Below are positions 10,355 through 46,225 of a stretch of 64,000 bases of DNA, one piece after another. The stretch is taken from NCBI GenBank assembly GCA_030704615.1, contig CM060731.1:72664001-72728000 (forward strand), written 5' to 3'. The stretch's first letter is position 1, and every line of letters starts with the position of its first letter. The DNA comes from Takakia lepidozioides. Its lineage: Eukaryota > Plantae > Bryophyta. The translations under genes and the position numbers were made by a program. The notes below the pieces were generated by a model. It searched no databases. It was given only the letters and a program-made list of their open reading frames with translations, and was not told the origin of the DNA.

Positions 10355-10450
10355 CATAAAGGTAGATGATAGAGATGGATGATAAAGGTGGATGATAAAG
10401 CTATATGATAGACCTACAAGATAAAGGTGGATGATAAAAGTGGATGATAT
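10355..10450. repeat. Short degenerate tandem repeat (GATAAAGGTGGAT-like)
   Basis: Repeated gataaaggtggatgataaa units. Confidence 0.7.
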
Positions 10451-11670: not shown

Positions 11671-12960
11671 TGTCATGGTTTTAGTCATGGTTATCTAGAA
11701 TTACCTACTTCTAGTTAACTAGGACATTTTAGATATTTATATTTATATTTTGTGTGTTGGGACTTCATTTGGTCTCACATGCCAAGTGAGGTGTCGAGCC
11801 TCACTTGAGACATGGAGATAGGTTTTCCCCTTGTGAGTGTTGAGGAGGCTCATCTTCTTGTAGTTGAGCCTCCATGAGCTTCTCTCACCTCCATAGCTCT
11901 AGGTATTGAGAGGGAGTGTGTTGAGGGCTTTGTAGGGTGGATTCCTTTAGCAAAGGTGCCCTTGGCTTGACTTAGTTTATGTGATAGAGTGGATTTCACT
12001 TGGAAGGACTAGGGCTTGTTCTTCATGTGATTGCTTCATGCTTTGAGAGCTTTCATTGTCTTCTACTTCTCTCATTTCTCATCTCTTATCACTACAAGAA
12101 GATCACCTTATGTTTGTGAGTGCGGAGTGTAAGGATTAGTTTTGCACTTGTGTTTTAAAGAGGTTGAGAGCTAGGAGAATTTAGCTCTTGTATCATAAGG
12201 CTTGCAAGGGGTTGCAAGGAAAGGTGCTCGAGTATTGCATGCACCAAGGAGTTGGAGAGCTTGAGAAGAAAGCTCTTGAGTCACAAGATTTTGCAAGGAT
12301 TGTAAGGAGGAAGTCTTGTGTGTGTGGAAGCATGGATTCTAGGGTTTGAGAATCCTTTGTATGCATTATGGAGTCGATGGTGTGCGCCATGGCTTGTGGA
12401 GAGTGACTAAAGGCTTGTTAGTGCTCATTTCACTATCAAGCTAGGGTTAAGCAAGTTCAAAGTGTGGATGTTGTGGAAGAGAAGCCAAGGAGCTATATAT
12501 GCTTGGGCTTGAAAACAACAAGGGCAAGCACTTGGAGAGCACTAAGAAGCTCAAGAGGTTTTGAAAGGGAGCATGTGAAGAAATCTTCCAATCATGGTGG
12601 TGTGGAGCCAAGCTTAGGGTGGCATTGGAAGGGCTTGGAGAACATATGGTGGGAAATCCTTGAAGGGAAATCATCATTCAATGTATGCATAGCTTCACCC
12701 TAACTATGTAATGTGACAAGAGGGGGAGGCAATACTTGGCTATTCATGCTCTTGGTAGTGCGAGCTTTGTGGTGGATAGTTGACCAAGCAAGTGGTGCAT
12801 GTGTGGAGCATGCTCGCTTGAGTTTCTAAGTTCAAGTTTGAGAAGGGGAGCTCTTGAACTAGCAAGAGGTGAAGGCCTTTGAGATCCATTTGTGTGTGAA
12901 GTGGAGAGGTGTTGATTCATGTTATGATGAATGAGAGCAACACATAGGCCAAGAGGTCAT
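11671..12960 (+). mobile_element. 5' terminal repeat and leader of a relative of the DNMT-bearing Gypsy element (truncated)
   Basis: Starts TGTCA and the repeat ends TTATCA (12091). Shares the ggctca..tgagcc hairpin, the TGAGTGC-loop hairpin, gcacttgtg and gcatgtgtggagcatg with 32515-33800. Confidence 0.7.
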
Positions 12961-12991
12961 GAAACATGCATTCAAATGACCACGGGAGGCA

Positions 12992-22217: not shown

Positions 22218-23742
22218 TCATAGGGTACCAAGTTTGCCAGAGATCCAGGCCTCAATCATCCTCTGAGAGCGGAGGTTTTGGTCAGAGGGGACCAAGTGTC
22301 CAGCCCCAACTATCACCACATGGCTCAATGTCTTGTGTGTGCGCACATACCCGGCCAAGACACCCTCCTCGTTCCAGACCTTCCTTCCAGAATCACAAAA
22401 AGATGGGGTGCCTTCCCAGGAGAGAGTGGCTATCCATTCTTCATTGGATGCAACTCCATCTTGGAGATCGAATTGACCCTGGTACAAGAGCACCGGTATC
22501 TGAGGCAGCACATACTCCAGCATCCACTTGCTGCTTTTCATGGTGTCATTTTGCATCTTGTCCTCCACCACATTGCTACATGATTCCCAGATGATGTTTG
22601 GATCAGCTCTGAGTGCCTTCTTTACGACTTCACTATTAACAAACAGAGTAAGAAAGTCGGTGCCATCATCGGTTGTGTAGTAGTGCACACTCCTGCGGAT
22701 GTCCAGCAAGGTGGCCAATCCTGTCACATTCTGAAGGGAGTCCAGCAGATTTTCCCTAGCTAAATGGGCTGCATACCACTCCTCATTCTCTACAAGTTCC
22801 ACCACCTGTTGACACAACAGTCAGATATATTTCAGTGGTGATGGACCATGGTCAGGCAAGTAATCCACAGGGGATCAGCTGCTCAGTGTTGCTTCAAGGC
22901 ATGATGATCGTCTGAGGGGCCCCAATCTAGCTGCCACTAGTCAATTGATGCTGCTCTTGCACTCGCAGCCAATTCAATTCAAAGACAATTGAAGCAGAAT
23001 TGGTTTTGAGTACCTGGTGAGCAAGTATATCGAACGACAATTTCTGCTGAGAATTAATCAGTCCCATGTAGTATGCAGTGGCAGCGTGCACCTGCACTTG
23101 CACAAGCGGATGAGTGAGGCCATTCCCGATGGCCAGGCCCTTCAATTCGAAGGGGGGTGGTGTGCGCTTGGCCAAAATGTGGCTGGCCTTTTCCATGCGC
23201 TTCAAAATATAGAATCCCAATGCTGGTACATACTTGCCCGCATAGCTCTCCCCAGCAATATACAAGGGACGCAATTCATATAGCGTGTTCCCTTTGAAGA
23301 AAACCCTGAGCGCCCGGTACAAATCCCGAGCTACATGGTGTTCATCGGATGGAATTTCGTCAGGGGTGCCACCAATGCTGAAGCCCGTTCCCACAGGATT
23401 ATCCAAAAACAGCAGGCCATACAGCCGATTCCATGGAGCTGCATTGCGATGTAGCTGCAGGTCTGCTTCCACTCTCCATGGCCCCAACTCGTAGAAATTC
23501 CCAATCATACCGGAGCATCCAGGGCCCCCCTGTAACCAAAGAATAATGGGGGTATTGGAGAGCTCATCTGCGGGGGAAATGGCTTCATAGTAGGCATAGA
23601 AGAGACGCGCCCCGCTGCTGCTGTTCACAGCCAGGTAGCCCGACGCTGTGGGTATCGCCTCTTCTGGAAATGGGTCCTCTGCCCCTGCCCATCCCTGCAC
23701 AGCCAGCAGCAGGCCCAGCAAAGCCAGCAACCACTCTGCCAT
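22218..23742 (-). CDS. Serine carboxypeptidase-like protein (S10 family, SCPL50-like); exons 23742-23014 and 22805-22218, about 438 aa
   Basis: Signal peptide; WLQGGPGCS; DNPVGTGFS; catalytic GESYAG; GQFDL; GAGHLVP; phase-0 GT-AG intron at 23013-22806. Confidence 0.93.
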
Positions 23743-24160
23743 CTCCTTGAGCTCCTCAAGCTTGAACACAGACCATAGCCATCACCATGCCTGCGGTTTC
23801 TGAATCCCAACTGCCACAGCAAAATTTTGAGAAAACATCCTGGAGTTTTACATGCTAAAAATATTTCTCGCTGTCATCCTTCTTCGAGGGCAAGTAATAG
23901 AAAAGGCCCGGGAGTTGAATGCGCCCTGGGCGGGTGTGCCTGCGTGGCCCGCCCCTCGCCCACCTAGGGATAGCAAAAAGGCTGTGTCGCAGAACTCCGG
24001 TCCGACCCCAAGCTCTTGTCAGTCGAATCTGGTGTAGCATTCTCCGTGCTGGAAGAGGAGGCATTGTTATGTATATTGTATGGTTGCACTGCATTTGATG
24101 CCCCATGACTCTCCAGAGTTCGTCTGACTGCATTTGTGAGCGAGGTCCTCCGCACTGAGC

Positions 24161-26368
24161 ATGGTTCTGGACGCAGAATACAGTTTGTACAAGAGGTTGG
24201 GTTCTAGACTAGCTATTTGGTCATGCAGAGCACTGGAGTTTCTCGTCTGGAATAGGACCCTTTTGTTTGTTAGGAATCAGATTCATAGAAAGGGTATTAG
24301 CCGTGGCACTTTCAATACCAGCACCGCTTTCCCTGGAGGACGAAGGCAAGCAAAAGGGAGTGAGGTAACAGACACATGGGGAACTAATGATGTGAGTACA
24401 TTGTGTAAGGAGGGGCCTAAACGAGAAATGCCTAAACGAGATGTGGTCTCATGGACTGCGATGATTGCAGGATATGCACAACAAGGGAAAGGTGAAGAGG
24501 CATTCGAATGTTTCCGGCAAATGCAACGAGAAGGGGTGAAGCCAAACAAGGTCACCTTCGGTAGCATTCTCAAAGCATGTGCCAGCCCTGCAGCTCTGGA
24601 ACGGGGCAGGGGGGTCCATGCGGGCATCATCAAAGCTGGACTAGACTCAGATATCAGGGTTGCAAATGCACTTGTCAGCATGTATTGCAAGTGTGGGAGT
24701 GTGGTGGATGCACACAAGGTGTTTGGAAAAATGGGTGAAAGAGACGTCGTCTCATGGACTGCTATGATTGCAGGATGGGCTGAGCATGGTCACGGTAAGG
24801 AGGCTTTCGATATTTTTTGGCAAATGCAGAAAGCGGGCGTTCAGCCAAACAAGATCACCTTCATGAGCATCCTGACTGCGTGTGCCGGTCCAGCAGCTCT
24901 GACACAGGGTAAGCAGGTCCATGCCCACATCATCAAAGCCGGATTCGAATCAGATGTTCGTGTGGGGAATGCCCTTGTCAGCATGTATGCCAAGTGCGGG
25001 AGTATTGTGGATGCACGGCAAGTTTTTGACACAATGCCTGAAAGGAACGTGGTCTCGTGGACTGCCCTCGTCAACATGTATTGCAAGTGCGGCAATGTCT
25101 TGCACGCTCGCCAACTGTTCAACAACATGCCCAATCGCAACGTGGTCTCATGGAATGTGATGATTGCAGGCATGGTTCAGCATGGGGATGGTGAAGAGGC
25201 TTTTGAACTCTTTCGGCAAATGCAGCAAGAAGGCGTCAAGCCAGACAAGGTTACATTTATGAGCATCCTCAGCAAATGTGCCAACCTAGCAGCCTTTGAA
25301 GAGGGCAAGCGCGTCCATACTCAAATCCACAACGCAGGACTTTCGTCAGATGTGTCTGTTGGAAATGCCCTTGTTGATATGTATGCCAAGTGCGGGAGTG
25401 TTGTGGATGCTCGGCAGGTATTCAACAAAATTCTGAACCGGGATGTGATCTCATGGACTGCAATGATTATCGGATATGCCCAGCATGGGCTTGGTGAAGA
25501 GGCTCTCCGCCTTTTTGAACAGATGCAACACGAAGGGGTGAAACCTGACAAGGTCACATTTGTTGGTGTTCTTTCAGCTTGCAGCCATGTGGGCCTGGTG
25601 CATGAAGGTCGTCGTTACTTCAACTCCATGAATAGAGATTATGGCATCACCCCAACTGCGGAGCACTATGGTTGCATGGTTGACCTGTTTGGACGTTCAG
25701 GGTGCTTGATTGAGGCAGAGAACTTCATAAGACAACTTCCAGTTGGACCAGGTCCCTCAGTGTGGGGGGCCTTGCTTGGTGCCTGCAGAATCCATGGCAA
25801 TGTTGGGCTAGCAGAGCGTGCTGCAGAATGTGCTCTCAAGTTGGAACCACACAATGCTGCAGTGTATGTGCTGCTATCTAATATTTATGCGGCAGCTGGT
25901 AGGTGGGAGAAAGTGGCGAAGGTGAGGAAAATGATGGAGGACAGAGGTGTGAAGAAAGAGCCGGGATACAGCTGGATTGAGGTCAAGAATAAGATCCACA
26001 AGTTTGTTGCAGAAGATAGATCACACCCACAAACCGAGGAGATTTACGATGAGTTGGAAAGATTGACTAAGAAGATGAAGGAGGCAGGATTTATGCCTGA
26101 TACACGGTTCGTACTGCACGACTTAGAAGAGCACCTCAAGGAACAGCATCTCTGCCACCACAGCGAAAAGCTGGCCATTGCTTTTGGGCTCATCACCACC
26201 CCCCCAGGATCATCTATCTATGTAACTAAGAACCTCCGAGTATGCGGTGACTGCCACACTGCCACAAAATTCATCTCGAAACTTTTCAACAGAGATATTG
26301 TTGCAAGGGACACCAGCCGATTTCATCACTTCAACAATGGAGTGTGTTCTTGTGGAGATCGGTGGTAA
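24161..26368 (+). CDS. PLS-E-DYW pentatricopeptide repeat protein, probable organellar C-to-U RNA editing factor
   Basis: PLS repeats, E1/E2, PG box (KKEPGYSWIEV), HSEKLA, CGDCH, ends CSCGDRW; start codon uncertain. Confidence 0.95.
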   Translation: MVLDAEYSLYKRLGSRLAIWSCRALEFLVWNRTLLFVRNQIHRKGISRGTFNTSTAFPGGRRQAKGSEVTDTWGTNDVSTLCKEGPKREMPKRDVVSWTAMIAGYAQQGKGEEAFECFRQMQREGVKPNKVTFGSILKACASPAALERGRGVHAGIIKAGLDSDIRVANALVSMYCKCGSVVDAHKVFGKMGERDVVSWTAMIAGWAEHGHGKEAFDIFWQMQKAGVQPNKITFMSILTACAGPAALTQGKQVHAHIIKAGFESDVRVGNALVSMYAKCGSIVDARQVFDTMPERNVVSWTALVNMYCKCGNVLHARQLFNNMPNRNVVSWNVMIAGMVQHGDGEEAFELFRQMQQEGVKPDKVTFMSILSKCANLAAFEEGKRVHTQIHNAGLSSDVSVGNALVDMYAKCGSVVDARQVFNKILNRDVISWTAMIIGYAQHGLGEEALRLFEQMQHEGVKPDKVTFVGVLSACSHVGLVHEGRRYFNSMNRDYGITPTAEHYGCMVDLFGRSGCLIEAENFIRQLPVGPGPSVWGALLGACRIHGNVGLAERAAECALKLEPHNAAVYVLLSNIYAAAGRWEKVAKVRKMMEDRGVKKEPGYSWIEVKNKIHKFVAEDRSHPQTEEIYDELERLTKKMKEAGFMPDTRFVLHDLEEHLKEQHLCHHSEKLAIAFGLITTPPGSSIYVTKNLRVCGDCHTATKFISKLFNRDIVARDTSRFHHFNNGVCSCGDRW

Positions 26369-28932: not shown

Positions 28933-29542
28933 TGTCACGGACATAGCCCAGAGGAACTTACCAGGAGTAAATACCAGAAGTTACCAAGTTATCATGTATC
29001 GGAAGTTACCATGATTTACCATGATCTACCATGATTTACCATTACTTATCAAGTTATCGGGAGTTTACCAAATTACCAAGAGTAACTTAGGAAACTACTC
29101 AGGAAACTTCATTTGGAAGAAACTTTTCCATCAAGATACCTCCTTTGTTTAAGGAAGCTTCTCCATCAAGAAATCTTTGTTTAATCTTAGAAACTTCTCC
29201 AGCAAGAAACCTCCATAGGGGAAACTTCTTGGGGAAGCTTCTTAGTAGCCAGTATATATAGGAGGCGAGACTGGACACTCTTCAGTTTCGCCAACACAAG
29301 TTCAAGCTACTCTTGTTCCAAGTCCAGTACTCCAGTCCAGCTTCCAGTATCAATTCCAGTTTTCAGCATTCCAGTATCCGAGTTGAGTTCCAGTATTTGT
29401 ACTCTTGTCCATTGTTATAAAGATCATCTGGATTCATGTTCACCTACCATGCATTCGGCCATGCCGACCTTGACTTCTTGCCTAGTCTTGTACCTCTAGT
29501 CTGATCTCTTGTTTGTGTTCTGTCATGTTCTCGTCCTTGACA
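28933..29542 (+). repeat. 5' LTR of the chromovirus
   Basis: TGTCACGGAC...CCTTGACA; TATATATA box; direct repeat of 46226-46837. Confidence 0.95.
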
Positions 29543-29580
29543 GTTTGACGAGACTAAAGTTTGTTCTTTAGTTAGTTAAG

Positions 29581-32514
29581 ATGGAATGCACATTTGCGGA
29601 AATGGTCACCATATTGCAGAGTCTTCAACTCCAGATGCAAGATCTTCGTACATCTACCGCCCAATTGCAAGCTGATCAATCTCAAGATCTTGGCAACGTT
29701 CTCCACAATTTGTAACAACAAATTTCAGAATTAAAGGAGTCGAACAATGGATCTTCAACCATACGAGTCTCTACTGCAACAGCTCCTACTGTAAAGGTTC
29801 ATCTTCAACAGAGTATGAGAGAACCAAAGATCAGTATGCCCGAAAAATTTGATGGGACAAGATCAAGATTTCGCGGTTTTGTTCAACAAATACGACTGTT
29901 CCTACGACTACATCCGCAACGCTACCCCGATGAAGGTATTCAAATGGGGTCCGTGGGCACCATTTTATCAAGCATTGCCATATCTTGGTTTGTACCGCTG
30001 TTAGAACAAAATTCGCATTTACTATACAATTTTGAAGCATTCATGTCCGAGTTCACTGCAACATTTGGAGAAAATGATAGGGAGAGAGTTGCAGAGACAA
30101 AGATGCGAAATCTTCGACAAGGAGCATGTCCTACTTCCGTTTATGCTGCCGAATTTCGACAACTTGCATGCGACCTTGACTGGAATGAGAAGAGCCTCAT
30201 TAGTCAATTTCGATGTGGACTAAAGGAGGATGTAAAAGATTTGTTGCTGACAATGCCAAACGTAAGCACACTGAGCGAATTCATCACCCAAGTCATTGCA
30301 TGCGATAATCGTTTGTTCAAAAGACGTCAAGAGAAGCGATCTGGATGATCGACGATGCATCATGCCGCTGCTACTACTGCACCAAACACAATGATTCAGC
30401 AGACATCCAGTAGTGATCCTATGCAGATTGATGCTATCCCATTCAAGCCATTGACGCCACAAGAAAAACAAAGACGACGCTCGAATTGATTATGCTTCTA
30501 TTGCGGAGAAGGAGATCACATAACATTAAACTACCCCAACAAGAGAAGATTCAAAGCTCGGGGCGCAACTCAAGTGTTCGATACGAGGAGGTCGGAAAAC
30601 GAAGATGTCCAGTCACAGTAGGGACCATGCGGCTGGACACCACAAATTCCTCACAAAAAAAAGGTCTCTTTCTACCTCCAGACCCTGCACCTTGCTTCAA
30701 AGTTCCTGTAAAAATCAGAGTACAAAATCGAGATATCTCTGTAGAAGCACTTTTGGACTCAGGGGCTTCAGCATGTTTTATTGACAAAAACTTTGCAAAG
30801 CAACACAATTTAACGCTCGTAAAGAAGAAACTCTCGACCCCCGTTGAAGTCATCGATGGACGACCGTTAGCATCAGGAAATGTTGACCATGAAACTCGAC
30901 CACTTGAAGTGAAGCTTGAAGATCAAGCATCTCATATTGTTTTCAACATCATCCAGTTTCTAACGAATCATGTCATCCTTGGACTTCCCTGGTTCGTACT
31001 TCACAATCCTGACGCGAAAAAATTCTGCAAGACGAAAATGTAGAAATATCAAAGGTATTCAACCCTTGTTCCTTGGAGCTAGAGCTTTCATGAGAGCTAC
31101 CAAAAAGGATGTGACATTCGCACTTTATGCGACTCCGATCAAGACCACAACAGACAAAGGTACTTCGACATTACCCACTCAATATCAAGATTTCAAGGAT
31201 GTCTTCGAGAAGAAAAATGCAGACATATTGCTAGAACATCGACCTTATGACTGTACAATTGAGTTACAAGAAAGAGCCCAACCACCATTCGGCCCAATCT
31301 ATAACTTATCCCAGACGGAGTTGACTGCATTATGTGAGTACATTGATGAAAATTTGTCAAAGAACTTCATCCGACATTCAAAATCACCTGTGGGGGCGCA
31401 TATCTTATTTGTGAAAAAGAATGACGGATCATTACACATGTATCGCGGTTTCAACAAAGTCACAATTAAGAATCGTTATCCGTTGCCGCTGATTTCTGGG
31501 CTTCTCGACCAACTGGGACGAGCAAAGATTTTCACCAAAATTGACTTGAGAGGAGCTTATAACCTTGTACGGATAAAAGAAAGAGACGAATGGAAAACAA
31601 CTTTTCGAACAAGGTATGGACATTTTGAATACAGTGTTATGCCTTTCAGTCTTACAAATGCTTCAGCAATTTCCAACATATGATGAATGACATCTTTCGA
31701 GAATTTTTAGATGACTTTGTAGTCATCTATTTGACACGACATTTTGATATTTTCACAGAATGAAGAAGAACATGGCCGCCATGTACGCCTTGTCCTTGAT
31801 AAATTAAGAGAAATAGGACTATATGCCAAATTGGAAAAATGTATTTTCCATCAATCTGAGGTCGAATTTCTGGGCTACATTATTTCCGACAAAGACGTCT
31901 TTATGGATCAGAAGAAAATACAAACCGTCATCGAGTGGATTAAACCAACTTCGGTCTGAGATGTACAATATTTTCTGGGATTTGCAAATTTCTATAGAAT
32001 CTTCATCAAGGACTACTCCAAAATTGCTGCACCATTGACACGATTCACAGGGAAGGACAAATTTGTATGGGACGAGAAGGCTGACCAAGCATTTGAAAGG
32101 CTGAAGCAGACATTTACAACAGCTCTAATACTGGTGCATGCAGACCCATCTAAACCATTCTTTTTGGAAGCAGATGCATCAGACTTTGCACTTGGCGCGG
32201 TACTCTCTCAATACGGTACAGATGGCCGACTCCACCCTGTTGGTTTTCGTTCTCGCAAATTTTCCGCTGCAGAGATCAATTATGAAATCCATGATAAAGA
32301 ACTTCTAGCGATTATCGATGCTTTTGAGGAGTGGCGTCATCTATTGGAGGGAGCTAAACATCATGTCACTGTCTACACCGATCACAAAAACCTCGAGTAT
32401 TTTATGAGTGCTCGTGTTTTGAATCGACATCAAGCGAGATGGAGTATGTCACTAACAAGGTTTGATTTTATTATTACCTACCATCCCGGACATCTTCAAG
32501 AAAAATCAGATGCT
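29581..32514 (+). pseudogene. Chromovirus gag, protease, RT and RNase H (disrupted)
   Basis: PEKFDGTRSRFRGF; PMQID; ALLDSGASACFID; [13 protein letters not shown]; LEADASDFALGAVLSQ; NYEIHDKELLAI; VYTDHKNLEYF. Confidence 0.93.
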
Positions 32515-32843
32515 TGTCAAGTTATTTTACCACTAGTGTGAAGTTAGCTAGAAAATAGCAAGCTTTTATATATTGACATTTGGGATTGACCCAAGTGTCA
32601 ATCCAGGGGCCAATACATGTTTGGGCACCTAACGTTGTTATCTTCACGGCAGATCGTGGTGGGCTCATCTTTCTCAAGTTGAGCCTCACCGCGCCTAGCT
32701 ATGGCGCCGTAGTGTGGATTCCCCATGGCGTGGGGTGGACTTGGCTTGACTTGTATTTAGGTAATGAGTTTATATATGCATGAGTTTATGCTTCAGCTTT
32801 GTGAGCTCGCATGAGCTTGTGCTTGTATTCTTCTTCTTTATCA
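32515..32843 (+). repeat. Terminal repeat A1 (329 bp)
   Basis: TGTCAAG...TTTATCA; about 17 substitutions versus A2 (43905-44233) by manual comparison. Confidence 0.95.
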
Positions 32844-32858
32844 CTCGAGAAAGATGAG
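32844..32858 (+). promoter_or_regulatory. Putative self-priming primer-binding site
   Basis: CTCGAGAAAGATGAG is the exact reverse complement of 44054-44068 in A2 and has 1 mismatch to 32664-32678 in A1; it does not start with TGG as tRNA PBSs do. Confidence 0.7.
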
Positions 32859-34279
32859 ATCGTATCTGTGAGTGCCAGATACGAGTTAGTTGTAGCACTT
32901 GTGGTTTTTGCTTGAGAATAAGAGAAACCAAGTTGTTATGCAAGGAGCACCGTGGAGCTCTTGGTTGTTAGTAGCGGAGGCGATGTGGGTTACGAGGTGG
33001 TAGACCTTGGCATTCGATCTTCAGCTTCCGAGATGACAGCACCATGCTGCAGGTAATTCCAGAGCACCTTGATGGTTTCAGATTGTGTACATGCATGAGC
33101 AAGCACGATTGGGAAGAGGACCAGTCAAGAGCAGGTTATAGTGGCTTTGGTGGCAAAGCTGAGAACTGGACTTGGGAATGCGAGCTTTCATTGTGTGAAA
33201 GATTGCAAGACCAAACGAAAGGGCTGATTTGGCTTGGGGCAAATCAGTGCACTTTGTGGAATATGTTGAGAGTGGGTTTCAATCTCAAGCTTCAGCATTG
33301 AGATGGCTCTTGTCATGGCAAGAGCAGGGCTGGAACAGGAGCTAAGAGGTGCGGCAAGGCCATGGAATGTGCACCTAGGGTTTCAGAGCTTGGAAGAAAA
33401 GCTCTTGCACCACAAGAGGAGTGTCTTGTGGCTGGAAATGTAAGCCTTAAGGTTTCAGGAGCTTGGCAAAGGTTGTGGAGTGCTTAGTATTGTCTTAGAG
33501 AGCATCAATGAGCCAAGGAGCCAAGATAGGGGCTGATACCTCTTGTGTGAAGAGGTTGCATGTGTGGAGCATGTATTCAGCTCATTGAAGCTTCCATCTT
33601 CAAGCTTGGAGGGCAAGCAAGAAAGAGGGAAGGGGCTGGTTTCCATGTAGGGCATGTGTGGAGCATGCTTCCAGCCCGCTGAAATTTGTATTTTCAGGTT
33701 GGTGGGTGCAAGAAAGGAAGCAAAGGGGCTGATTCTCTTGTGGTGAGAGTGGGGCATGTGTGGAGCATGCCTTCAGTCCATTAGGCTTTTGTTTTTAAGC
33801 TTTAAAGAACTAGAAGAGAAGGTAAGGGGCTGATCTGCTCTTATGTGACAGTCCGACACTTGTAGAGCGTGTTCTTAGTTGGGGTTTCAACCTCAAGCCT
33901 AGATAGAGCATGGCTCTTGAAGTGGCAGATGTAGGGGGCTGGAATAGGCTCTAAAACAGATGCTATGGCCAAGGAAAACGCTTGAATGAGTGCTCACAAG
34001 GGCTAGAAACCAGCAAGGCTTGGTTGTTTGCCATTGAGTTTAGTGGCGTGTTTAGGGAGTCTAAGTGAGAAAGAAGGCTTGGTTTGTGGCAACCATCTTC
34101 CTTAGGCTTAAGGCTACTATTGGTGGTGTGTGGGAGCCGAAAAAGCAAGAATACCTTGCTGATTTCTTCACTGCCGCCATAGCTCAGTGCAAAGAAGCCT
34201 AGGGTCCAAGAGACACAAACCCTAGCTTGGCGTGGCTAAACCCCTTGGAGAAATGGCTAAACTGCCATGAGTGGCCATG

Positions 34280-34930
34280 GATGGGGCTGGCTGTGCCCTG
34301 TGGCTTGTGGGGCCGTGAGGGGCTATGACAGGCTATTCCATGTGGCCCGTGGGGCTGTGACGGGCTGTGCCATGTGGCCTATGGGGCTGTGACGAGCTGT
34401 AAGGGGCTGTGACAGGCTGTGCCCTGTGACCCCTGTGACCTGTGTAGGGCTGTGACAGGCTGTGAGGGGCTGCGCCTGTGGCCTATGGGGCTGTGACGGG
34501 CTGTGACAGGCTGTGGCCTTTGGGGCTGTGACCCCTCTTACCTGTGTAGGGCTGTGAGGGGCTCTGACAGGCTGTGGCCTTTGGGGCTGTGACCCTTGTG
34601 ACCTGTGTAGGGTTGTGACAGGCTGTGAGGGGCTGTGACAGGCTGTGGCCTGTGGCCTGTGGGGCTGTGACGGGCTGTGATAGGCTATGACAGGCTGTGG
34701 CCTTTGGGGCTGTGACCCCTCTGACCTGTGTAGGGCTGTGATGGGCTGTCACAGGCTGCGGCCTGTGGGGCTGTGACCCTGTGAACTGTGTAGGGCTGTG
34801 ACAGGCTGTGGCCTGTGTGGGGTTGTGACGGCTGTGACCAGTGAGCTGTGTGGGCTTGTGCTGGTCTGTGGTGGCCCGTGTTGACCTGTGGACGGCCTGT
34901 GCTGACTTGTGGAGGCACTGGTGGACTGCC
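34280..34930. repeat. GGCTGTGAC-type minisatellite in the element's 5' leader
   Basis: Dozens of ggctgtga(c) units arranged in higher-order blocks of about 50 bp. Confidence 0.92.
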
Positions 34931-35600
34931 TAAGGACTGGCATGTGGTCTTGAAGGCCGAATTTTAAAGCTCGTGGAGGGCGGTTTGAGGAGTATCTTCA
35001 TGATATTCCCATGGTCATGCAAGTGATGGAAGAGAGGAGAGGAAGAGTGTTGGGATGAGGGCATGCTAGGGTTAGGCATTGCTTTAGCTTCTTTTCTTCG
35101 TAGTTTCCACCCTCTCATTAGGCCAAGACCTTTCCGTAGGTGGAGGCAAGAGTCAGTCCGGGTTTGGGCTGGGGTGTCCTTGCAGGAGCAACACCGTGGA
35201 GTTGTTTTTGGTGTGGGGGAGTTGTCGTTCTGATTTCTTGTGTTTGGATCCCCTCCATACCTGCATGCTTGGCTATGCGCCATGCTAGTTTTGTGTGGGC
35301 GCTTGTTTTTATAGTTGATTGGTCCAGATTTGATCACCGGCCAGTCCTAGAGCATGCTGTCGATGGTGAGGCTGGGGTGATGACCAGCCAGACCATCATT
35401 GTTTCTCCTGTGGTGAGGTTGGAGGTGATGACCAGCCAACCATAGGAGTGCTTGCGGTGGATGCAGGTACAAGTGTAGGCTATGTTAGGAACATAGTATT
35501 CCAAACCATAAGCCGCAGCAGGTTCTCTACCCGGTTACTTTGTGGAGAGGGATTAGGGACATGTTCATGACCGGTTGAATGACAGTTTGTCAACACGGAG

Positions 35601-38285
35601 GTGCCACAAGTTGTTGGGGATAGTGCCGGTTTGAGCACTAGCGATACTAGTGGGTACACGAGACGAGGTGTGCGATTTAGGCCACCTTCACCTCCTGTGT
35701 CTTCTACGGAAGGTTCTGATTCGGATTGTGAATCAGGAGGACTCGTACCGGCGGTGCAAGTGGTTTCCTTGCCATTGTTGTGGGACACAATGGAGGAGAT
35801 GTATGGAGCTACCAAGGGGCTACAAAGGTACTCTGGGGCGGTGGGCACCATCGAGTTGGATGATTTTATCCAAGAGTTTGATAGTTGGTGTGATTTGCAG
35901 CAAATGCGCAATCCACAACTATTTACGCCTTTCATGGCATAGAAGGGGCTATTTCAGTACCTTGAGGGGCCGCCTATGGATGATTACCATGAGTTCAGGC
36001 GGGGGCATGAGGTTGAGATCAAGGAGTAGAGGATGTACTGGTCACCCGACTATGTCTCCATCACTAGGGGCACTAGAGCCACGAGGGCAGTGGCTACACC
36101 TGCCGCTGCACCGGCAGCTTCAGCAAGCAACAGTGGGACTAGTGGGACTGGTGGTACAGTAGCTACAATGTCCACCCAAGCCACTACCGCACCAGCACTA
36201 GTACCCGTGCCTGCCTTCAACCCTATTGTGGAGTTCTTCGAAGAGTTGAGAGGGAACTACCAAAGGGTGATGATAGAGAAGTTGCGAAGCTTGCAAGAGT
36301 TCCAACGGAAGCCAACCGAGAGCTTGAGGAAGGCTTTCACTCGCATGAGGCGCTTGATAAATGTAACCCAAGGGGTTACGGAAGCTTAGGTAGTCCAATT
36401 CTGGTATGGGATATTGGACAAGGAGCTGAGGAGAAGGGTGCGGGATGCAACTCTCCTACAAGCGGCCCAACCCACCTTAGCAAATATGTTTTTGCTGGCA
36501 GAGCGGATAGAGCTCAACATGGTGGAGGAACGAGTGGTCATGGTGGGATTTACTAAGGAGACACCACGGGGTAGTGGTGCTCCTAGCCAACCACTACCTC
36601 AATGTGCTCAAGGCAACAAGGGGGCTCAGGTGAAGCTCAGGGAAGGGCAGAGAGGACCTCAGATGCAGGGGTCTCTCCCTTCATTTGCAGGTCAACAACA
36701 GGGGGATGTGGTGTGCTGGACATGTGGAGGACCCCATGTCAAGAAGGATTGCCCAGAGAGAGGCAAAGGGCCGGCACATGCACAGCCTGCACAGTTGCAG
36801 TGTGGGCATTGTGGCAAGCACGGGCATGGAGAGGCCCAGTGTTATGGTTTGCATCCTGACTTGCGTCCAGGCCAGTTCCAAAGGAACAATGGTGGCCGGA
36901 GGCAAGGTGGAGTAGCCCAGAGAGGACGAGGTGGCCAGGCACGAGGTGCAGGCCAAGGGCAAGCTCAACATGGCCAAGGTCGCTGAGGTCAGGGTGTTGA
37001 CCAAGGCATGGCCAACCGGCTTCAGCAGCTAGAGCAGAGGCTCGCTGCCATGGCTACAGCTCAGGTGGTACCGGCTCCAAGGCCGGATGGTCCACCTCCT
37101 GCTCCTAAGGGAGGAGATATGGGAGGCATGGGATTCAAGTGTGGAGCAGCACTACCACTAGTGCAGGTGGAGTCTGCTGCAGCCGTGACTCGAGGAGCAG
37201 CACGAGTTCTTGAGCCACAAGGTGCAGAGGTGGAGTCGTGGGGAGGCAAGCCGTTACTATGCCATTGGGGAGAGCTACACGGGTAGCACCACTACCTAGT
37301 GTTGCCAAGGCTTTGGCAGCTAGTGTGCTGCTAGGAGCGGCCACATCTATGTGTCAGGCTCCATTGTTCTCGGCTACCATGATTGCGACGCCGGGGGTAA
37401 GACCAGCTGAGGTGTTCAGGCTGGCAGCTACACTCTGTGAGAGTGGGGAGGTTACTTCATCTTCTGCGGAGATAGTGGGAGGTGTAGGGCCAGAGGGATC
37501 CTCGGATTTGAGGGTCAAGACTGCCACGGCGGCGCCATGGCAAGCTGCAGCTGCGGTTGATGGAGCTGCCAGCTAGGCCAGCCATTGAGCGCGCCATGGT
37601 GACACCTGGAGTTGTCATGTTAGACAACCAAGATGGCATTTTCTGTTTAAGTGGACCGGTAGGCAAGAGGTACCGGCCACTGCGAGTCTCGTTGGACTCA
37701 GGAGCTCAGCCATTGATGCTGGGCAGAGCTACTATTGCAGGCTTGGGCCTCACGGAGGCGGATATGGAGCCTTATCATTTCCAGATACAGACGTCTCTGG
37801 GAGGATCGGAGCAGGCTCGGGGCATGACACGGCGTGAGTTGGCTATCAGACTATGGCCGGATTACCCTACAGATGGCTCAGTGATGCGAGCCAAGGCCAT
37901 TGTGATAGACGCGGTCTCGTACGATGTCCTGGTTGGTGGGGCAATGTTGTACCCCATGGGCTTCACCCTGGATTTTTGGGAGGAGTCAGCTTCTTATAGG
38001 CCTGGATGGCTGTTAGGGGAGGGCCAAAGTATGCAGCTCCCTGTGACGTTTATAGGAGGAGTTGCGGTTGCCCAGCGGGGCAAGATGCCGACACTAGTAG
38101 CATTCACAGCTGCAGTGACTTGGCCTAGAGAGTTGCTTGAGGGAAACGCTCATTCAGAGGATGACATACCTCCGGGAGAACAGGATGACATGTATGATAT
38201 AGCGGAGTTGCCTGCCATGGTTGCTCTGACTCCATTGTGGGGCACGAGCAAGGTTTTGCAGCAGGTTGTTGATCGACGGGTGTAA
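35601..38285 (+). pseudogene. Gag (two CCHC knuckles) and aspartic protease of the DNMT-Gypsy
   Basis: LDDFIQEFDSWC; CWTCGGPHVKKDC; CGHCGKHGHGEAQC; protease SLDSGAQ...YDVLVG; in-frame stops and one frameshifted stretch. Confidence 0.85.
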
Positions 38286-38417
38286 CAAGCCTGGGTGGAG
38301 GCTTTTGTACCATCAGGAGAGGAGGAGACTGCGGGGATTGCACCAAGACCACCTCAGTTGTCTCCATTGGACACCACACCTATTGTGTGGCAGTATCCGG
38401 ATGAAGGCATTTGTTTT

Positions 38418-39350
38418 CTGGACTTGTTTGGCGGGATCAGCACCAGATTGGCTGCTGTATTACAGGCAGATGTACGAGTTCGGCGTTACCTGTATGTGGA
38501 GAGGGATGAGACTGCACGACGCGTTTCACTTCGCCATATTACTCAGTTGGTGCAGCGGTATCCTGAGTTGTTGCCGGTGGCTGTAGTTCGTGGATATTAG
38601 CAGGCCTTGCCAGCAGACATTTTGATGATGGGGGCGCAGGATTTGGAGCGGGTTGGGTCCATTGATCTGGTAGTGGCAGGTTGGCCTTGCCAAGGGCATT
38701 CATCAGCCGGGCATAGCAATGGATTGCGAGACTCGACGTTGGGTCTGCTTTGGAAGATGGTGCGGGTTTTGCGCCACTTGCAGGTTTATCAAGCTGTATC
38801 TCCAGCATACATCTTGGAGAATGTGCCACTGATGGGCGATTCTCGGGCCAGGGTGATGGCCAGTGTGCATCAAGTCTGGTCGTGGCTTGGGTCAGCAGTG
38901 TTGCTAGATGCAGCTACAGTGGGGTCACGGGCTCATCGTCCACGGCTATGGTGGACTAACTTGATGCCACCCGCACTGCTCAAGCGTGCATTTGATGGGG
39001 TGCAGCGGCCAGCACATCTCACAGTGGATAGCATTCTGGACACAGGGAGGAAGTCTCAGCGTGTGAGACACGATGACCGTTCGCCTTTGGCAGTCGTCAA
39101 CAAGGTGGGTCAACCACGAGCAGCATTACCTACACTGCTCAGCTTCCCAGGATCGCATGCTTTCCGGGATAGTGGACCTGGCCTCCTGTGGGATGCTCAG
39201 TTGCAGCAGTTAGTGGAGTCTAATGCTGACGAAAGTGAGCGGGCAATGGGTTTTACCACTGGTACCACGGCGGTGTCGTCTCTTTCTGAGGCATCACGTC
39301 GTCAAGTGTTGGGGCAAGCAATGGATCTCAATTGCTTGACCTGGATTATC
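38418..39350 (+). CDS. C5-cytosine DNA methyltransferase domain (DNMT3-like) within pol; one premature stop at 38598-38600
   Basis: Motif I LDLFGGIS, II YVERD, IV GWPCQGHS (PCQ at 38685-38693), VI YILENV, VIII AHRPRLWWTN, IX ERAMGF, X RRQVLGQAMD; same reading frame as the protease. Confidence 0.92.
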
Positions 39351-39749
39351 AGCTTGGCTATGGCTGAGCAATGCAGAGTGCGGAGTACACTTCCCTCGAT
39401 GGTCTCTTTGCCTACCGAGATGGTACAGGCAGTGAGTGGGGGCAAGCATGTGAGGACCACGGGGTGCAGGCATCCATGGCACACGTGGGAGGTGCTCGAG
39501 GTTCAGAGGGAGTTGGCAGCCAAGGTGGCGGTGATGGATAATTTTTCTCGGGTGGAGGAAGTCCTTGAGGATGAGATGATGGGGCAGGATGAGGCCTTGT
39601 CACTGACTGAGCAGGTAGGGAGTACTGCTCAAGAGGTTGCAACATAGCAACCACTGGATGCGTCCTCTACCTCTAAGCCCACTGGACTTAAGGTTGCAGT
39701 TACGGAGGACAATTGGGAGCCTGACATTGGACCCATTGTCACCGGAGAA

Positions 39750-42700
39750 GAGAGACGACGTATACGGCGGTTCCTGAGGGCTTACAAGAATTGCTTTGCC
39801 TTCAGTTTGAAGGACTTGGGAGCACTGAAGGGTCAAGAGATCCGTATTGAGTTGGCCACTGACACTCCAATCTTTCGGAGACCCTATAGATACAGTGACA
39901 TGGAGAGGTCTTTGATTCAGATGAGGACTCAAGATCTCTGGGAGGCAGGTTGGGTGGAGCTCTCTGGTGGAGCTCTCTGGTGTAGAGTATGCTTCAGCCA
40001 TAGTGATGTCAGCCAAGAAGGATGTCTATGGCAATTGGACGGAGTGTCGCGCACCTCACTTCGGTAAGCTCCCCCCCCTCAAGTCATAGTTACTCGCTTG
40101 ATGCGCGCGCCTAACTCCCAACCTGGCTGCCGGGCCAACTTGGAGCTTCGGCTGCTCACCGGGACATAACGGTCCCCCCTTAATCTCCCAAAGAATCCTC
40201 CAACGATTTAAAACCAGCGGAATTCCCTTTGGTAGTTGGCAGTCCGGAACAGCTCCCCACTCTTTGGTCGCTTTCCGGCTCGCTCGCTTACTCACTAGCT
40301 TTTGGTCACCAACGGGCTTGCACCGTTCTCGGGGTTACTACTCCCTATATATACTTCTGTAGCTGTCCGCGGGGGTTTCACAAACAACCATGCCATTTTA
40401 TGGCGAACCACCACGAACACCCTCGACTCCCGGTGATGAGTCGCGGTGAGTCTTGGCCCACTCACCAGGGCCCCTATGGACCGTGATGAGTCCCAAGACT
40501 CCCCACGACTCCCACCACGAGGTCTCCGCCCCAGGGTGAGTCCTATGCCACCCCCACTAAGTCCCGCTAAGCTACCACCACCCCTTGTGGAGCCACCCCC
40601 ACCGCAACCCGGTGTGCGGGGCTCCACCTAGTGAGCGCCTCCGCCTCATTGAGTGCTTTGGGCACTCAAGGGTGCTTCAGCCCCCCATACTTATCGCTGC
40701 CACTGCCCCCACCACAGGGGCAGCCCCTCTTGTGTCCCGACCCCCTGCCCTCAAGGCAAAGGGCCGCGACACGGAGAGACGTATGTGCAGTGATTACTGG
40801 CCTGTAAATCGTCAGACCAAGTCCGATAAGTATGCCATGCCAACACCAGAGGAGATCTTTGATGCCATCGGGCATGCTAAGGTCTTTAGCACTTTGGATT
40901 TACAATCCGGATATCACCAATTGCCAATCAAGGAGGCGGACAAGCAGAAGACGACATTCTGGGGGATCAATGAGCACGGCAAGGATTGCCTATATCAGTG
41001 GCGGTTCTTACCATTTAGGCTTAAGAATGCTCCTGCAGAGTTTCAGAGAGTCATGGATAGGATTCTAGCAGGGGTGGACTTTGCTCGGTGCTACATAGAT
41101 GACATCATCATCTTTAGTGTTACGGTGGAGGAGCATGAGAGACACCTTCAGGTGGTATTGGAGCGCTTGAGAGCACACGGATTGAAGTTGCATCCGGGGA
41201 AGTGCAAGTTTTTCCACAACCAGATTGAGTATCTAGGTCACATGATATATCTTGGAGGACTGGGGGTACAGCAAACTAAGGTAGAGGCCATTGCACAAAT
41301 TCCACGCCCCACGGATGTGAGCCGAGTTTGAGCTTTCATGGGGTTGGCAAACTATTATAGACGGTTTGTCAAGGGATTTAGTGCCATTGCAAAGGCTCTA
41401 ACCAAGCTGACCAAGGTGGACCAGGAGTGGCAGTGGGAAGATGAGCAGGAACGAGCTTTTCAAGAGCTCAAGGCAAGGTTGACCTCGGCGCCTATCCTAA
41501 GACGACCTATCAGGGGGCGTCCCTTTCAGCTGCATACGGATTGGAGCATGTTGGGGCTTGGAGCGGTGCTCACACAGGTGGATGATGAGGGAAGAGAGTT
41601 CGTAGTGGCTCATATTAGCCGCTTGAACAACGCTGCAGAGGCTAAGTACAGCTCATATGAGGGAGAGTGCTTAGCTGCAGTGTGGGTTGTGACACACTTC
41701 AGGTGCTATCTATACGGCAATCTTTTCACCTTTGTCACGGATCACCAGCCACTCAAGTGGTTGATGGAGTCAGACAAGCTTACGGGGAAGCTTGCACGGT
41801 GGGCACTCATACTCCAGGAGTATGACTTTCAGGTTGTGCATCGACCGGGTTTGGTCAATCGGGATACGGATGGATTGAGTCGCAATCCATGCACGAGCCA
41901 GCAGGATGACACTGGAGCTCGGTGGCATGGTGAGACGGACGAGGAGATGGTGTCGGGATGGCACGCATCTGCATTTTTGTGTATCTTGGCATCGGGAGGT
42001 CAGGTTAGACCTACAATAGGGATGACTGTAGACGGAGTGTCTGAGGACCCTGAGGCTAGTGATGAGCCAGGTGGTGCCAGAGATATACATGAGGATTCGG
42101 CTGTGTTGGACTACCTCCGCACGGGAGACACGGCAGCCACTACGGCTGCCAGGGAGAGGGATCGGATCTTGCAACGAGCCAAGAGATTCAAGTGGGAGGG
42201 GATACACCTACTTCGAGTGTGGGAGGATGGTCGGGTGAGGATTGTGCCTCACCCCACACAGCGTGCACGGTTAGTGCGGCATGCCCATGAGGAGTTGGGG
42301 CATTTTGGAGTGCGACGCACTCACAGTTTACTGCAGGGGCAGTATTGGTGGCGTGGTATGCATACAAAGGTGCAACAGTTCGTGGCTAGGTGCATGGTGT
42401 GTGACAGGGTGCGTGCTTCATTCAACGCCCAACAGTTGCATCTTTTACCAATCATGGGATTGGGCTACATGTGGAGTCTTGACTTCGCAGGACCGTTGCC
42501 ACTGACTATGCGCCACCACAGATATGTGTTGGTAATGGTGGAGCACTTCTCCAAGTGGATTGAGTTGGTTCCATTGCCTGACAAAGCTAGTGAGGGGGCT
42601 GCGTATGCATTCTTGGATCGTGTGCTTAGCCGATTTGGTGCTCCAGCTGAGGTACTCACGGACCAAGGAGAGAGTTCTTGGGGAGTTTCAGGCTTTGTGT

Positions 42701-43519
42701 GATAAAGCCTTGATAGACCACCGTACCACTTCTCGGGATCATCCTGAGGCCGATGGCTTGGCAGGGAGAGTGGTGTAGACGGTGAAGAGGGGTTTGCGCA
42801 AGTATGGCTTGCAAAAATGACACCTAGGAGATTGGGATCTTCAAGTACCTTGGCTAGCCATGGACTACAGGTTTATCAAGCAAGCATCACTTGCCTTCTT
42901 CTCACCATATTTCCTTCTCTTTGGCCGAGAGCCAGATTTGCCTGCGTCTATTCGCAGGGAGACTGCAGTAATCCTCAACCTTGATGATCCGGATGTGTGG
43001 ACATAAGCATGTGCCCAGCGGGCAGAGTTGTTCAAGAGAGTCATGCCTGTGGCTTTTGAGAATCTTGCTATTGCCCAACACCGAGACACATTGAGGTATG
43101 CCACTATACGTGGAGGGGGATATCGGCCAGGTGTTCGGCGTTTCCACCGTGGGGACTATGTGTATCTGCAGCAGACAGCGCCTACGACCTTGGATATCAC
43201 ATCAGGACGTGTGATTCTAAGGGTCAGAGAGGTGTTTCCTTCAGGAGTGTTGATTCTGGAGGGTCGAGATGGCATGGTATGAAAAGACCATGTGCGTAAT
43301 TGTGCGCCATGTCACCTTCCACATGTGGATGGGAGGATAGATCCCAACCTTGCAGTGGTACCTACAGGATTGCGTTGCATGCTATGTGGGCATGCTCGTG
43401 GTGCCGCCACTATGCTGGTGTGTGATCGATGCTCAAGAGGTTGGCACATGGGATACTTGACACCACCTCTTGAGAGGGTTCCTGATGGAGATTGGTTATG
43501 TCCACACTGCTTGGGATAG
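39750..43519 (+). pseudogene. RT, RNase H, DDE integrase and C-terminal PHD finger of the DNMT-Gypsy
   Basis: STLDLQSGYHQ; CYIDDIIIFS; LHTDWS; EGECLAAVW; VTDHQPL; HEELGHFG..CMVC; WSLDFAGP; VLTDQG; CMLC..CDRC..WHMGY..WLCPHC. Confidence 0.92.
40045..40771. mobile_element. Solo LTR (727 bp) inserted in the RT of the DNMT-Gypsy
   Basis: TGTCGCG...CGCGACA termini; 5-bp TSD CGGAG (40040-40044, 40772-40776); removal restores WTERRMCSDY. Confidence 0.92.
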
Positions 43520-43778
43520 TGACAGTGGATATGACTAGTGGCAGCTCACAAGACATGGGAGGCCAAGCTCATATGAGTCAATACCCGAGATCTCAGGCTC
43601 AAGTTCACAGGTTGCAAGACGACGACTAACGATGGGGCAACTCTTGTACCCGGCCTCTTGATCTATTGAGTTTGAGTGTAGTAGGGACAGTGATGGAGGA
43701 CTTAGTGAGGCTATGGCCACTATCACATCTTGTGGCTACCTGGACTTAGAGGGACCTAAGCGCCAGCTAGGGGGACGA

Positions 43779-43902
43779 TTGTGAGTGGACTAGTGGCAGC
43801 CTAGTGGTGGACTAATGGCTGCACTAGTGGTGACTAGTGTGCACATATGTTGTGTGGTTTGGACAACGATGTAGTTGTGTAGCGATATGTATGCGTACGA
43901 CA
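43779..43902 (+). repeat. Terminal repeat B1, preceded by a polypurine tract
   Basis: Purine-rich AGGGGGACGA (43769-43778), then TTGTGAG...ACGACA; shares both ends with B2. Confidence 0.9.
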
Positions 43903-43904
43903 GT

Positions 43905-44233
43905 TGTCAAGTTATTTTACCACTAGTGTGAAGTTAGCTAGGAAATAGCTAGCTTTTATATATTGACATTTGGGATTGATCCAAGTGTCAATCCAGGGAC
44001 CAATACATGTTTGGGCACCTGACGTTGTTATCTTCACGGCAGATCGCGGTGGGCTCATCTTTCTCGAGTTGAGCTTCACCGCGCCTAGCTATGGTGCCGT
44101 AGTGTGGATTCCCCATGGCGTGGGCTGCACTTGGCTTGACTTGTATTTGAGTGATGAATTTATATATACATGAGTTTATGCTTCAACTTTGTGAGCTCGC
44201 ATGAGCTTGTGCTTGTATTCTTCTTCTTTATCA
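43905..44233 (+). repeat. Terminal repeat A2
   Basis: Direct repeat of 32515-32843, separated from B1 by GT. Confidence 0.95.
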
Positions 44234-44486
44234 TTGTGAGTGGACTAGTGGCTGCACTAGTGGTGACTAGTGGCAGCCTAGTGGTTGGACTAGTGGCTGC
44301 ACTAGTGGTGGCTAATGACAGCCTAATGTTGGACTAGTGGCTGCACTAGTGGTGACTAGTGGTTGTCCAGTGGCAGCCTAGTGGTGCACTAGTGGTGTAC
44401 TAATGATAGACTAGTGTTTGGTGTGCACATATGTTGTGTGGTTTGGACAGCGATGTAGTTGTGTAGCGATATGTATGCGCACGACA
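44234..44486 (+). repeat. Terminal repeat B2 (more ACTAGT units than B1)
   Basis: TTGTGAGTGGACTAGTGG...GCGATATGTATGCGCACGACA, followed by the TSD. Confidence 0.9.
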
Positions 44487-46068: not shown

Positions 46069-46225
46069 TAAGATATCACAACGATGATGTCAGCCAAATT
46101 AGCTTCAAGGTGAAGACTCCACATTCAGTGTATCTTATATACATTAAGGAGAGAGGTTCTCCAACTCTAAGCAAGTCCAAGATCTTACCGCTCCTCGAGG
46201 AATTCGGCGCTAGAGGAGGGGGTGA

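Follow-up and report, generated by a model that had tools for sequence, protein, structure and literature searches.

The stretch analysed here, called the window throughout, is 64,000 nucleotides of the bryophyte Takakia lepidozioides (assembly GCA_030704615.1, contig CM060731.1, forward-strand positions 72,664,001 to 72,728,000). At 32515-44486 it holds a retrotransposon of 11,972 bp, inserted with the 4-bp target-site duplication (TSD) TGCT into the pol of a chromodomain Gypsy element (Table 1), and the insertions of other copies likewise start at 32514-32518, judging by loose ends in runs X8 and X12. Our subject is how this element primes its reverse transcription. Its domain order is that of Ty3/gypsy (gag, protease, reverse transcriptase [RT], RNase H, integrase), the last three domains being identified by Pfam and the gag- and protease-like frames, for which there was no Pfam match, by position and motif only. 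Between protease and RT lies a methyltransferase domain whose 26 matches in PDB were all DNMT3 proteins (DNMT3A/B/C), and the C-terminal PHD-like finger was recognized by eye from its cysteine pattern in the window element and as PF00628 in most relatives. The element is a Ty3/gypsy retrotransposon with a DNMT3-like methyltransferase and a relative of KnitGypsy-Dnmt3; because all its frames carry stops, the window copy (copy 1, of family 1) is an old one. The repeats are laid out as A1, primer-binding site (PBS), coding region, polypurine tract (PPT), B1, A2 and B2, that is, A...B-A-B. The 5′ end of a second family (copy 2) sits between two parts of a Copia element; neither a B repeat nor a second A was found for it within the window, but contigs show that it also opens its A repeat, at 11671, behind the same B|A junction as family 1.

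Table 1. Features of the element and of copy 2 in the window (position 1 is the first letter of the window)
Feature	Position	Strand	Remarks
Target-site duplication TGCT, left copy	32511..32514	+	right copy 44487-44490; runs X1 and X5 show the empty-site junction (loose ends at 32514)
Repeat A1, left element end (TGTCA...TTATCA)	32515..32843	+	94.8% identity with A2 over 330 nt
TATA-like run, 100 nt 5′ of primer, doubtful as promoter	32564..32574	+	32569 is C in 414,916 of 639,348 depth units of X1
Hairpin X, primer in loop	32655..32693	+	32655-32667 with 32680-32693; 13 pairs, one bulge; probability 0.91 in A2, 0.99 in copy 2
Predicted 12-nt self-primer	32667..32678	+	predicted cut between 32678 and 32679; 11/12 complement to PBS in this copy, 12/12 in A2 (44057-44068)
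Helix Z, 5′ strand, bases just 3′ of primer	32677..32685	+	9 pairs in A1, A2 and copy 2
Helix Z, 3′ strand (GGCTTGACT)	32743..32751	+	within a 13-nt block, the longest identity between the two window families
Helix W, 5′ strand	32761..32768	+	partner is the end of A (32837-32844), beside the PBS; 7/8 pairs in A1, 8/8 in A2, 7/8 in copy 2, 5/7 in L056
Primer-binding site, 12 nt, directly 3′ of A1	32844..32855	+	no TGG start
Hairpin S1, loop TGAGTGC	32860..32884	+	stem 32860-68/32876-84; probability 0.83-0.99 in 18 folds
GCACTT(GTG), loop partner (helix S2)	32895..32903	+	6 core pairs, up to 9; pseudoknot, or fold alternative to S1
gag- and protease-like frames, interrupted by stops	35583..38285	+	zinc-knuckle- and protease-like motifs by eye
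C5 cytosine methyltransferase domain, DNMT3-like, with stops	38286..39647	+	PF00145, E 1e-10
RT, RNase H, integrase, C-terminal PHD-like finger, with stops and frameshifts	40561..43510	+	PF00078, PF17917, PF17921, PF00665
Polypurine tract, directly 5′ of B1	43769..43778	+	equal position in L056 and L057
Repeat B1, end ACGACA	43779..43902	+
B|A junction, GACA-NN-TGTC near-palindrome, predicted integrase attachment site	43899..43908	+	junction shared by contigs of both window families
Repeat A2	43905..44233	+	carries the perfect 15-nt complement at 44054-44068
Repeat B2, right element end	44234..44486	+
Copy 2, 5′ end of second family	11671..12152	+	A start 11671; primer 11852-11863; Z strand 11964-11972; PBS 12092-12103; S1 12106-12134; GCACTT 12144-12149

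Complementarity between repeat A and the bases after it

An earlier note on this DNA had described the 15 nt following A1, CTCGAGAAAGATGAG at 32844-32858, as complementary to a stretch of repeat A. The exact 15-nt complement is found only in the 3′ repeat A2, whereas A1 matches at 14 of 15 positions, and the duplex that is conserved is 12 bp, not 15. The A1 mismatch, an A at 32676, is a change private to this copy, because the family reads G there both in run X1 (783,586 of 798,085 depth units, or 98%; depth figures throughout refer to contigs and do not measure copy number) and in each of the four runs; the family letter brings the copy-1 primer duplex to 12/12. That both partners changed together in copy 2, as the note had also proposed, was borne out: they pair 12/12, and of the 12 positions four differ between the two window copies, all four with compensation. 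The same 12-bp complement, in different letters, recurs in two further families represented by contigs L056 and L058, with every pair intact in copy 2, L056 and L058 and 11 of 12 in copy 1. In copy 2, L056 and L058 the 13th pair is lost, and 32856 G>C breaks it in 23% of the depth of family 1 (family-1 variant figures are among the variant rows listed). In three of four families the duplex ends at base 12, the next base being a C that faces a non-pairing base before the primer, and a C that cannot pair follows the PBS in the 23% of family 1 as well; such a C would fit copying of the 5′ cap G. Shuffling repeat A gave a perfect partner in 0 of 3000 trials in each of the four families, and among 38 listed rows for family 2 no difference of at least 4% fell in the primer, the PBS or the following C.

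The two additional families came from a search for relatives. Among the matches listed (the best 120 of 272 proteins, E <= 1e-60) were proteins from Marchantia, Coleochaete, Klebsormidium, Closterium, Haematococcus and Tetraselmis; of these, the Klebsormidium proteins were 45-48% identical, and the closest named relatives, from Marchantia and Coleochaete, reached 74-78% over the RNase H stretch. In a tree on 174 columns the element groups with Klebsormidium elements in an 18-row branch with support of 87/90, which is under the starred level. Alignment of 42 of the 120 listed proteins led to contaminant contigs in prokaryote bins, where 10 loci included 4 of the clade (L056-L059). Of these, L056 is an entire element in collapsed form, with 64% identity in pol; L057 consists of a 3′ end only, with B-A-B; and L058 and L059 are more distant (46% and 41%). 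These four are plant or algal retrotransposon contigs within three species-representative bins (G001, G002 and G003, with 9, 4 and 4 matches), and a protein from one contaminated bin carries the label cyanobacterial reverse transcriptase. The four families counted here are copy 1, copy 2, L056 and L058; L057, as a 3′ end only, L059, with its imperfect duplex, and L060-L065, in part for want of the junction, were left out. The complement begins 182 nt into A in L056 and 94 nt in L058, its partner again being the bases after A, and for L056 the end of A was fixed independently through L057, because in the comparison of L056 with L057 A end and PBS start align with the start of B2. L059 has a 3265-aa open frame (122-9919) and, 5′ of its B|A palindrome, a second frame of 713 aa (10033-12174), followed by a candidate primer at 12956 and an imperfect partner at 13137.

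Scans for more copies served as controls as well. Pattern scans gave 1, 0, 8 and 45 matches; the single match was rejected as a further copy, being antisense of a phage gene, and none of the 53 chance matches to the primer-flank pattern (8 + 45) had a downstream complement at <=1 mismatch. Viral contigs yielded 78 att-like matches, of which 3 of the 75 with enough flank had an inverted repeat of at least 11 bp, none resembling the module, and 1 of the 75 was followed by a 12-bp inverted repeat. Protein scans of viral contigs found 0 loci and then one ordinary env-bearing Gypsy, and L085 and L164 added nothing.

A PBS served by a tRNA must open with TGG, as the CCA end of the tRNA requires. This start is absent from all four PBSs, and no tRNA genes were found within the 64-kb window. 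Priming by a host tRNA or half-tRNA, with the self-complement a by-product, would be the usual arrangement in plant LTR elements, including the non-chromovirus clades Phygy (tRNA-Trp, 81%) and Selgy (tRNA-Ala, 90%) of mosses and lycophytes (PMC6317226). We find it barely credible for this element, since, besides the absence of TGG, the letters of the PBS change from family to family together with those of the repeat of the same element, as they could not if a fixed tRNA were the primer. Tandem agreement of primer and PBS in four families with different letters makes it very likely that the element self-primes from its own RNA independently of tRNA, as the earlier note had proposed. The matched changes reflect self-priming rather than selection on a fold, because RT can copy a retained primer into the PBS; by analogy with Tf1, of whose cDNA about 50% retains a PBS copy (PMC11042837), such copying would alone be enough to produce them.

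Folds around the primer and the start of the RNA

In Tf1, the 11 bases that open the transcript pair with the PBS, and the RNase H cut falls between bases 11 and 12 (PMC7175516). The earlier note had held the geometry here to be unlike that of Tf1, because the complement lies about 100 nt past a TATA-like box, and had placed it largely in the loop of a GGCTCA..TGAGCC stem. The stem exists (32662-67/32680-85) as part of hairpin X, but in the folds it and the primer duplex are alternatives that never occur together: X shares bases with helix Z and with part of the primer duplex, is incompatible with the priming fold, and is predicted in A2 and in RNAs with upstream sequence. Its equivalent in L056 is an 11-bp stem. 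When upstream sequence was included, the primer duplex of copy 2 and that of L056 had a probability of 0.00 in nine of nine folds each; when the RNA began at the primer, X was gone in both and the duplex rose to 0.94-0.96 in four of six folds of copy 2 and to 0.70-0.92 in all six of L056. The TATA-like run, for its part, is disrupted in 65% of family-1 depth (32569 T>C), the primer lies between 94 and 182 nt into A depending on the family, and L056 and L057 have a TATAG about 29 nt 5′ of the primer. On balance, the contrast with Tf1 drawn in the note found no support, the box being disrupted in most of the depth and two families pairing only with a start at the primer. Because in two of the four families X leaves the duplex free only when the RNA begins at the primer, we favor the Tf1 geometry: the primer is probably the first 12 nt of the transcript, cut off by RNase H as in Tf1.

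An alternative is self-priming from a long 5′ leader, in which the RNA would start about 30 nt past the TATA-like run with the primer in the loop of X, refold once the PBS is made, and be cut by RNase H after 32678 to give a primer of 70-80 nt. It would account for the AT-rich TATA-like runs about 100 nt upstream in both window families, for the retention of X with different flanking letters, and for the primer duplex that copy 1 and L058 form with upstream sequence present. We nevertheless consider it unlikely, given the complete block by X in copy 2 and L056, the disruption of the TATA-like run, the variable distance from the start of A, and the sharp stop of the duplex at base 12 in three of four families.

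Two helices that the earlier note did not report flank the predicted cut site. Helix Z joins the bases just 3′ of the primer to a strand further into A; it keeps 7 Watson-Crick pairs in L056 and L057, where two G-U pairs have turned into C-G and A-U, and its probability is 0.82-1.0 in all 18 copy-1 folds. Helix W, which brings a segment of A to the edge of the PBS, is weak in folds. Between the window families there are six identical blocks of at least 8 nt: one at each end of the primer, flanks included, one at about 32740-32752, and one each at the end of A, in the loop of hairpin S1 and in the loop partner. In the fold that we envisage, the transcript would start at the primer stretch of A, by analogy with Tf1, the 12 bases would pair with the PBS directly after A, and the primer duplex, Z and W are predicted to stack as a three-way junction at the cut site, where the element's RNase H would cut after base 12, again as in Tf1. 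Since X needs bases upstream of the primer, folding predicts that A2, the 3′ copy, and read-through RNA would adopt it, which would keep those copies off the PBS.

Several observations weigh against this model of a 12-nt primer at the RNA 5′ end. Among the folds of copy 2 that start at the primer, the two longest leave the duplex at 0.08-0.18; the copy-1 duplex has a probability of 0.55-0.74 in 18 of 18 folds whatever the start; and L058 has a duplex at >=0.5 in eight of nine folds with upstream sequence and erratic values of 0.0-0.91 in six folds starting at the primer. Neither window family has a TATA-like motif 25-35 nt 5′ of the primer. Most of family 1 could lengthen the duplex to 16 bp (32859 is C in 99.6%), the end of A in L058 has no independent fixing while 1 of 75 chance sites yields such a repeat, and L059 offers only an imperfect candidate duplex of 11/12 with G-U pairs. 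As for the junction, the probability of helix Z in copy 2 and L056 does not exceed 0.21, and the helix is broken in one X12 contig (11868 G>C).

The downstream hairpin and the ribozyme question

Beyond the PBS, hairpin S1 with its TGAGTGC loop and the downstream GCACTT (32895-32900 and 12144-12149) are present in both window copies where the earlier note had located them. The pattern of loop, spacer and GCACTT occurs twice in the window and in none of 100 shuffles. The note had further proposed an H-type pseudoknot and, more broadly, compensatory changes between the two copies; these can be seen in the primer duplex and in stem S1 but not in the pseudoknot helix S2. Of the 10 pairs of S1, three are changed on both sides and four on one side with pairing kept, one is unchanged and two are broken, and a C-G pair returns with the letter that most of family 2 has at 12113 (C, 98%). 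With two sequences only, 54 of 500 shuffles reach the same covariation score. All six core pairs of S2 are invariant, without compensatory change, and a change at 12120, found in 0.2% of X1 depth, has no visible compensation. Chance alone supplies an S2-type partner in 152 and 88 of 5000 shuffled sequences; for the full H-type arrangement (linkers of 1-2 nt and 9-10 nt), the two copies score above 299 of 300 and 300 of 300 shuffles. Two one-sided G>A changes (32868, in 10%; 12152, in 99%) improve the 3-pair extension of S2 while weakening the top of S1, and because they strengthen the extension the loop likely pairs downstream. Energetically, a nested alternative in copy 1 (9-bp S2 plus a small inner hairpin) comes to -7.2 against -11.3 kcal/mol for S1, and in copy 2 S1 (-5.1 kcal/mol) is less stable than a competing 3′ hairpin (-8.1). 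We lean slightly toward a pseudoknot that does form, the other outcome being a two-state fold.

Neither the S2 motif nor the H-type arrangement was found in the 70 nt after the PBS of L056 or L058. Because these two families keep the primer duplex without the motif, S1 and S2 are not the primer-making module and are dispensable for priming across the clade, contrary to the suggestion that this structure generates or positions the primer. S1 and its loop partner likely make up a real accessory structure of the leader, though one confined to a single lineage, and its role is most likely that of a packaging or dimerization signal or of a fence that keeps the PBS free. Being lineage restricted and unproven, the pseudoknot alone carries little weight.

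Small ribozymes leave a 2′,3′-cyclic phosphate, which RT cannot extend without repair. This general consideration bears on the idea that a new self-cleaving ribozyme, namely the three-way junction or the pseudoknot, frees the primer without protein, as might be suggested by the gathering of conserved blocks at the G^U step at the primer 3′ end in three families, by the short invariant loop and linker words, and by the performance of the H-type arrangement against shuffles. We regard a ribozyme as extremely unlikely: end chemistry of that kind would not prime, the element codes for its own RNase H, the pseudoknot is absent from two of four families, and the matching step in L058 is A^A. The earlier note had recognized no known ribozyme core, and in agreement with it a search of Rfam 15 at gathering score gave 0 matches in the 64 kb and none in copy 2 or L056, the best local scores (16.5, 15.8 and 22.5 bits) belonging to non-ribozyme families and lying far under thresholds. 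Pistol-, hammerhead- and twister-like cores were also rejected in a comparison by eye with their consensus, and Rfam agrees.

cDNA ends, neighboring sequences and known systems

The B|A junction, a near-palindrome in the window element, is the perfect palindrome GACAGCTGTC in L056, L057, L058 and L059. At the A2|B2 junction, which 13 X1 contigs show in the same form, there is no PBS base, and B2 opens with the base that first follows the PPT in B1; given an LTR consisting of B+A, which is likely the true one, the joint equals the two ends expected from priming at 32844 and at the PPT. The simplest account, and a likely one, is that the cDNA ends would be joined and integrase would then cut at the internal B|A palindrome. 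The exact primer boundary fixes the right end of the cDNA and marks A2|B2 as an end-to-end join, which supports a long-debated circular precursor of integration. The complement might instead act on DNA or in strand transfer, through cDNA end joining or folding of single-stranded DNA, with priming elsewhere. Such elements likely do join their ends before integration, and in L056 and L057 the PBS and repeat B share their five starting bases, but this identity is absent from the window element, no other PBS candidate was seen, and the complement starts exactly where the minus strand must start; we therefore judge this role very unlikely. The shared bases themselves (L056 7416-7420; L057 2311-2315 and 2779-2783) are a microhomology that could guide end joining.

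Taken with self-priming at the RNA 5′ end, these features allow a wider picture that we put forward tentatively: a DNMT3-Gypsy clade, spread from green algae to land plants, may have an independently evolved cycle of its own, in which a start-site-gated RNA switch makes the 12-nt self-primer only at the RNA 5′ end, cDNA ends are joined precisely, circles are the obligatory substrate of a DDE integrase through the internal palindrome, and the pseudoknot of the window lineage marks primed RNA for packaging.

Within the element, an insertion of ~725 bp breaks the RT region (about 40045-40770; L056 aligns to 39985-40044 and then from 40771), and G-rich short tandem arrays occupy 34277-34930, in the long 5′ leader, and 44234-44420, in repeat B, where array length is the main difference between B1 (124 nt) and B2 (253 nt). 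The host chromodomain Gypsy (28933-46837) is Tcn1-like by domain content, with LTRs 94.6% identical and a solo LTR at 18927-19301 (-); its PBS (29543 ff.) has no TGG start and resembles the complement of the LTR about 30 nt past the TATA box, but a gap is needed and an ungapped test was unconvincing. Copy 2 is followed by a CACTA-like element (12963-17400; Transposase_21, E 1e-24), 5′ of which a frame has a weak SET-domain match (E 9e-4, under the Pfam cut-off). Named by eye from their translations are four long PLS-type PPR frames with 303-bp repeat units (2796-5141, 24140-26368, 52418-54787 and 56797-59082) and a serine-carboxypeptidase-like gene (22218-23781). PPR genes of this type and the nested transposons of the window point to a seedless land plant.

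The nearest described element is KnitGypsy-Dnmt3 of Klebsormidium nitens (de Mendoza et al. 2018, PMC5890265), which shares the DNMT3-type methyltransferase in a Ty3/gypsy pol and DIRS-like A-coding-B-A-B repeats. Its host is an alga of the genus Klebsormidium rather than a bryophyte, and the available text of that paper is silent on priming, PBS, PPT and a B|A palindrome. A literature search, mostly without subscription papers, found one paper that names KnitGypsy and no description of priming in the KnitGypsy/Gypsy-DNMT3 clade; a 2026 preprint mentions streptophyte Gypsy-DNMT3 but, in the text available, not its priming (10.64898/2026.05.21.726589). This abundant family has likely been missed or misannotated, as programs that find LTR elements look for a pair of LTRs and a PBS for tRNA.

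In its priming the element resembles Tf1/Tf2 and the Tf1/sushi group, including the plant Tcn1 chromoviruses, whose PBS is likewise complementary to the element's own repeat and matches no tRNA (PMC7175516, PMC6317226, 10.1101/2022.12.06.519325). The Tf1 primer is similarly short (11 nt versus 12 nt here), and extra duplexes lie beside the primer duplex in both, Tf1 priming requiring a three-duplex structure (10.1101/2022.12.06.519325). The scaffolds differ, however: helix Z joins two LTR strands, whereas the Tf1 "pretzel" has a duplex between bases downstream of the PBS and the LTR, and no duplex of that type was found at a conserved place on the downstream side of our PBS, by eye or in folds, although helix W is present on the upstream side. 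Tf1/sushi elements also carry a chromodomain at the end of integrase in place of a PHD-like finger and have two ordinary LTRs instead of a permuted A...B-A-B, and the RNase H of the window element, only 37% identical to that of the chromovirus in which the element sits, falls outside the branch of that chromovirus in the tree (weak support). The element probably works like Tf1 but is not a Tf1/sushi member. Plant self-priming has been predicted, in the text available, for Tcn1 chromoviruses and TAR (Houba/Osr-1) Copia elements only (PMC6317226), and self-priming has been proposed for Tj1 (PMC4600332). The TAR elements are also predicted plant self-primers outside Tf1/sushi, but with Copia domain order, ordinary LTRs and a separate origin. 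A non-chromovirus Gypsy clade would be a further origin of plant self-priming, with a different scaffold around the same 11-12-nt primer, so that comparison could test what governs RNase H cutting of an RNA duplex.

The A...B-A-B layout is shared with PAT/Ngaro/TOC1-type tyrosine-recombinase elements and SymbioDIRS-Dnmt3 (PMC5890265), which suggests a circular intermediate. In contrast to elements of DIRS order, the window element has a DDE (rve) integrase, a 4-bp TSD, a PBS and a PPT, and the Pfam scan of the window frames gave no tyrosine recombinase family. A parallel for the last step proposed here is foamy virus, whose integrase can cut palindromic 2-LTR circle junctions (PMC1180852), at a palindromic CA..TG junction and with processed ends as the product. 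In foamy virus the palindrome is made by joining LTR ends, whereas here it is stored within the LTR, at B|A, and the A|B joint of the cDNA is not palindromic.

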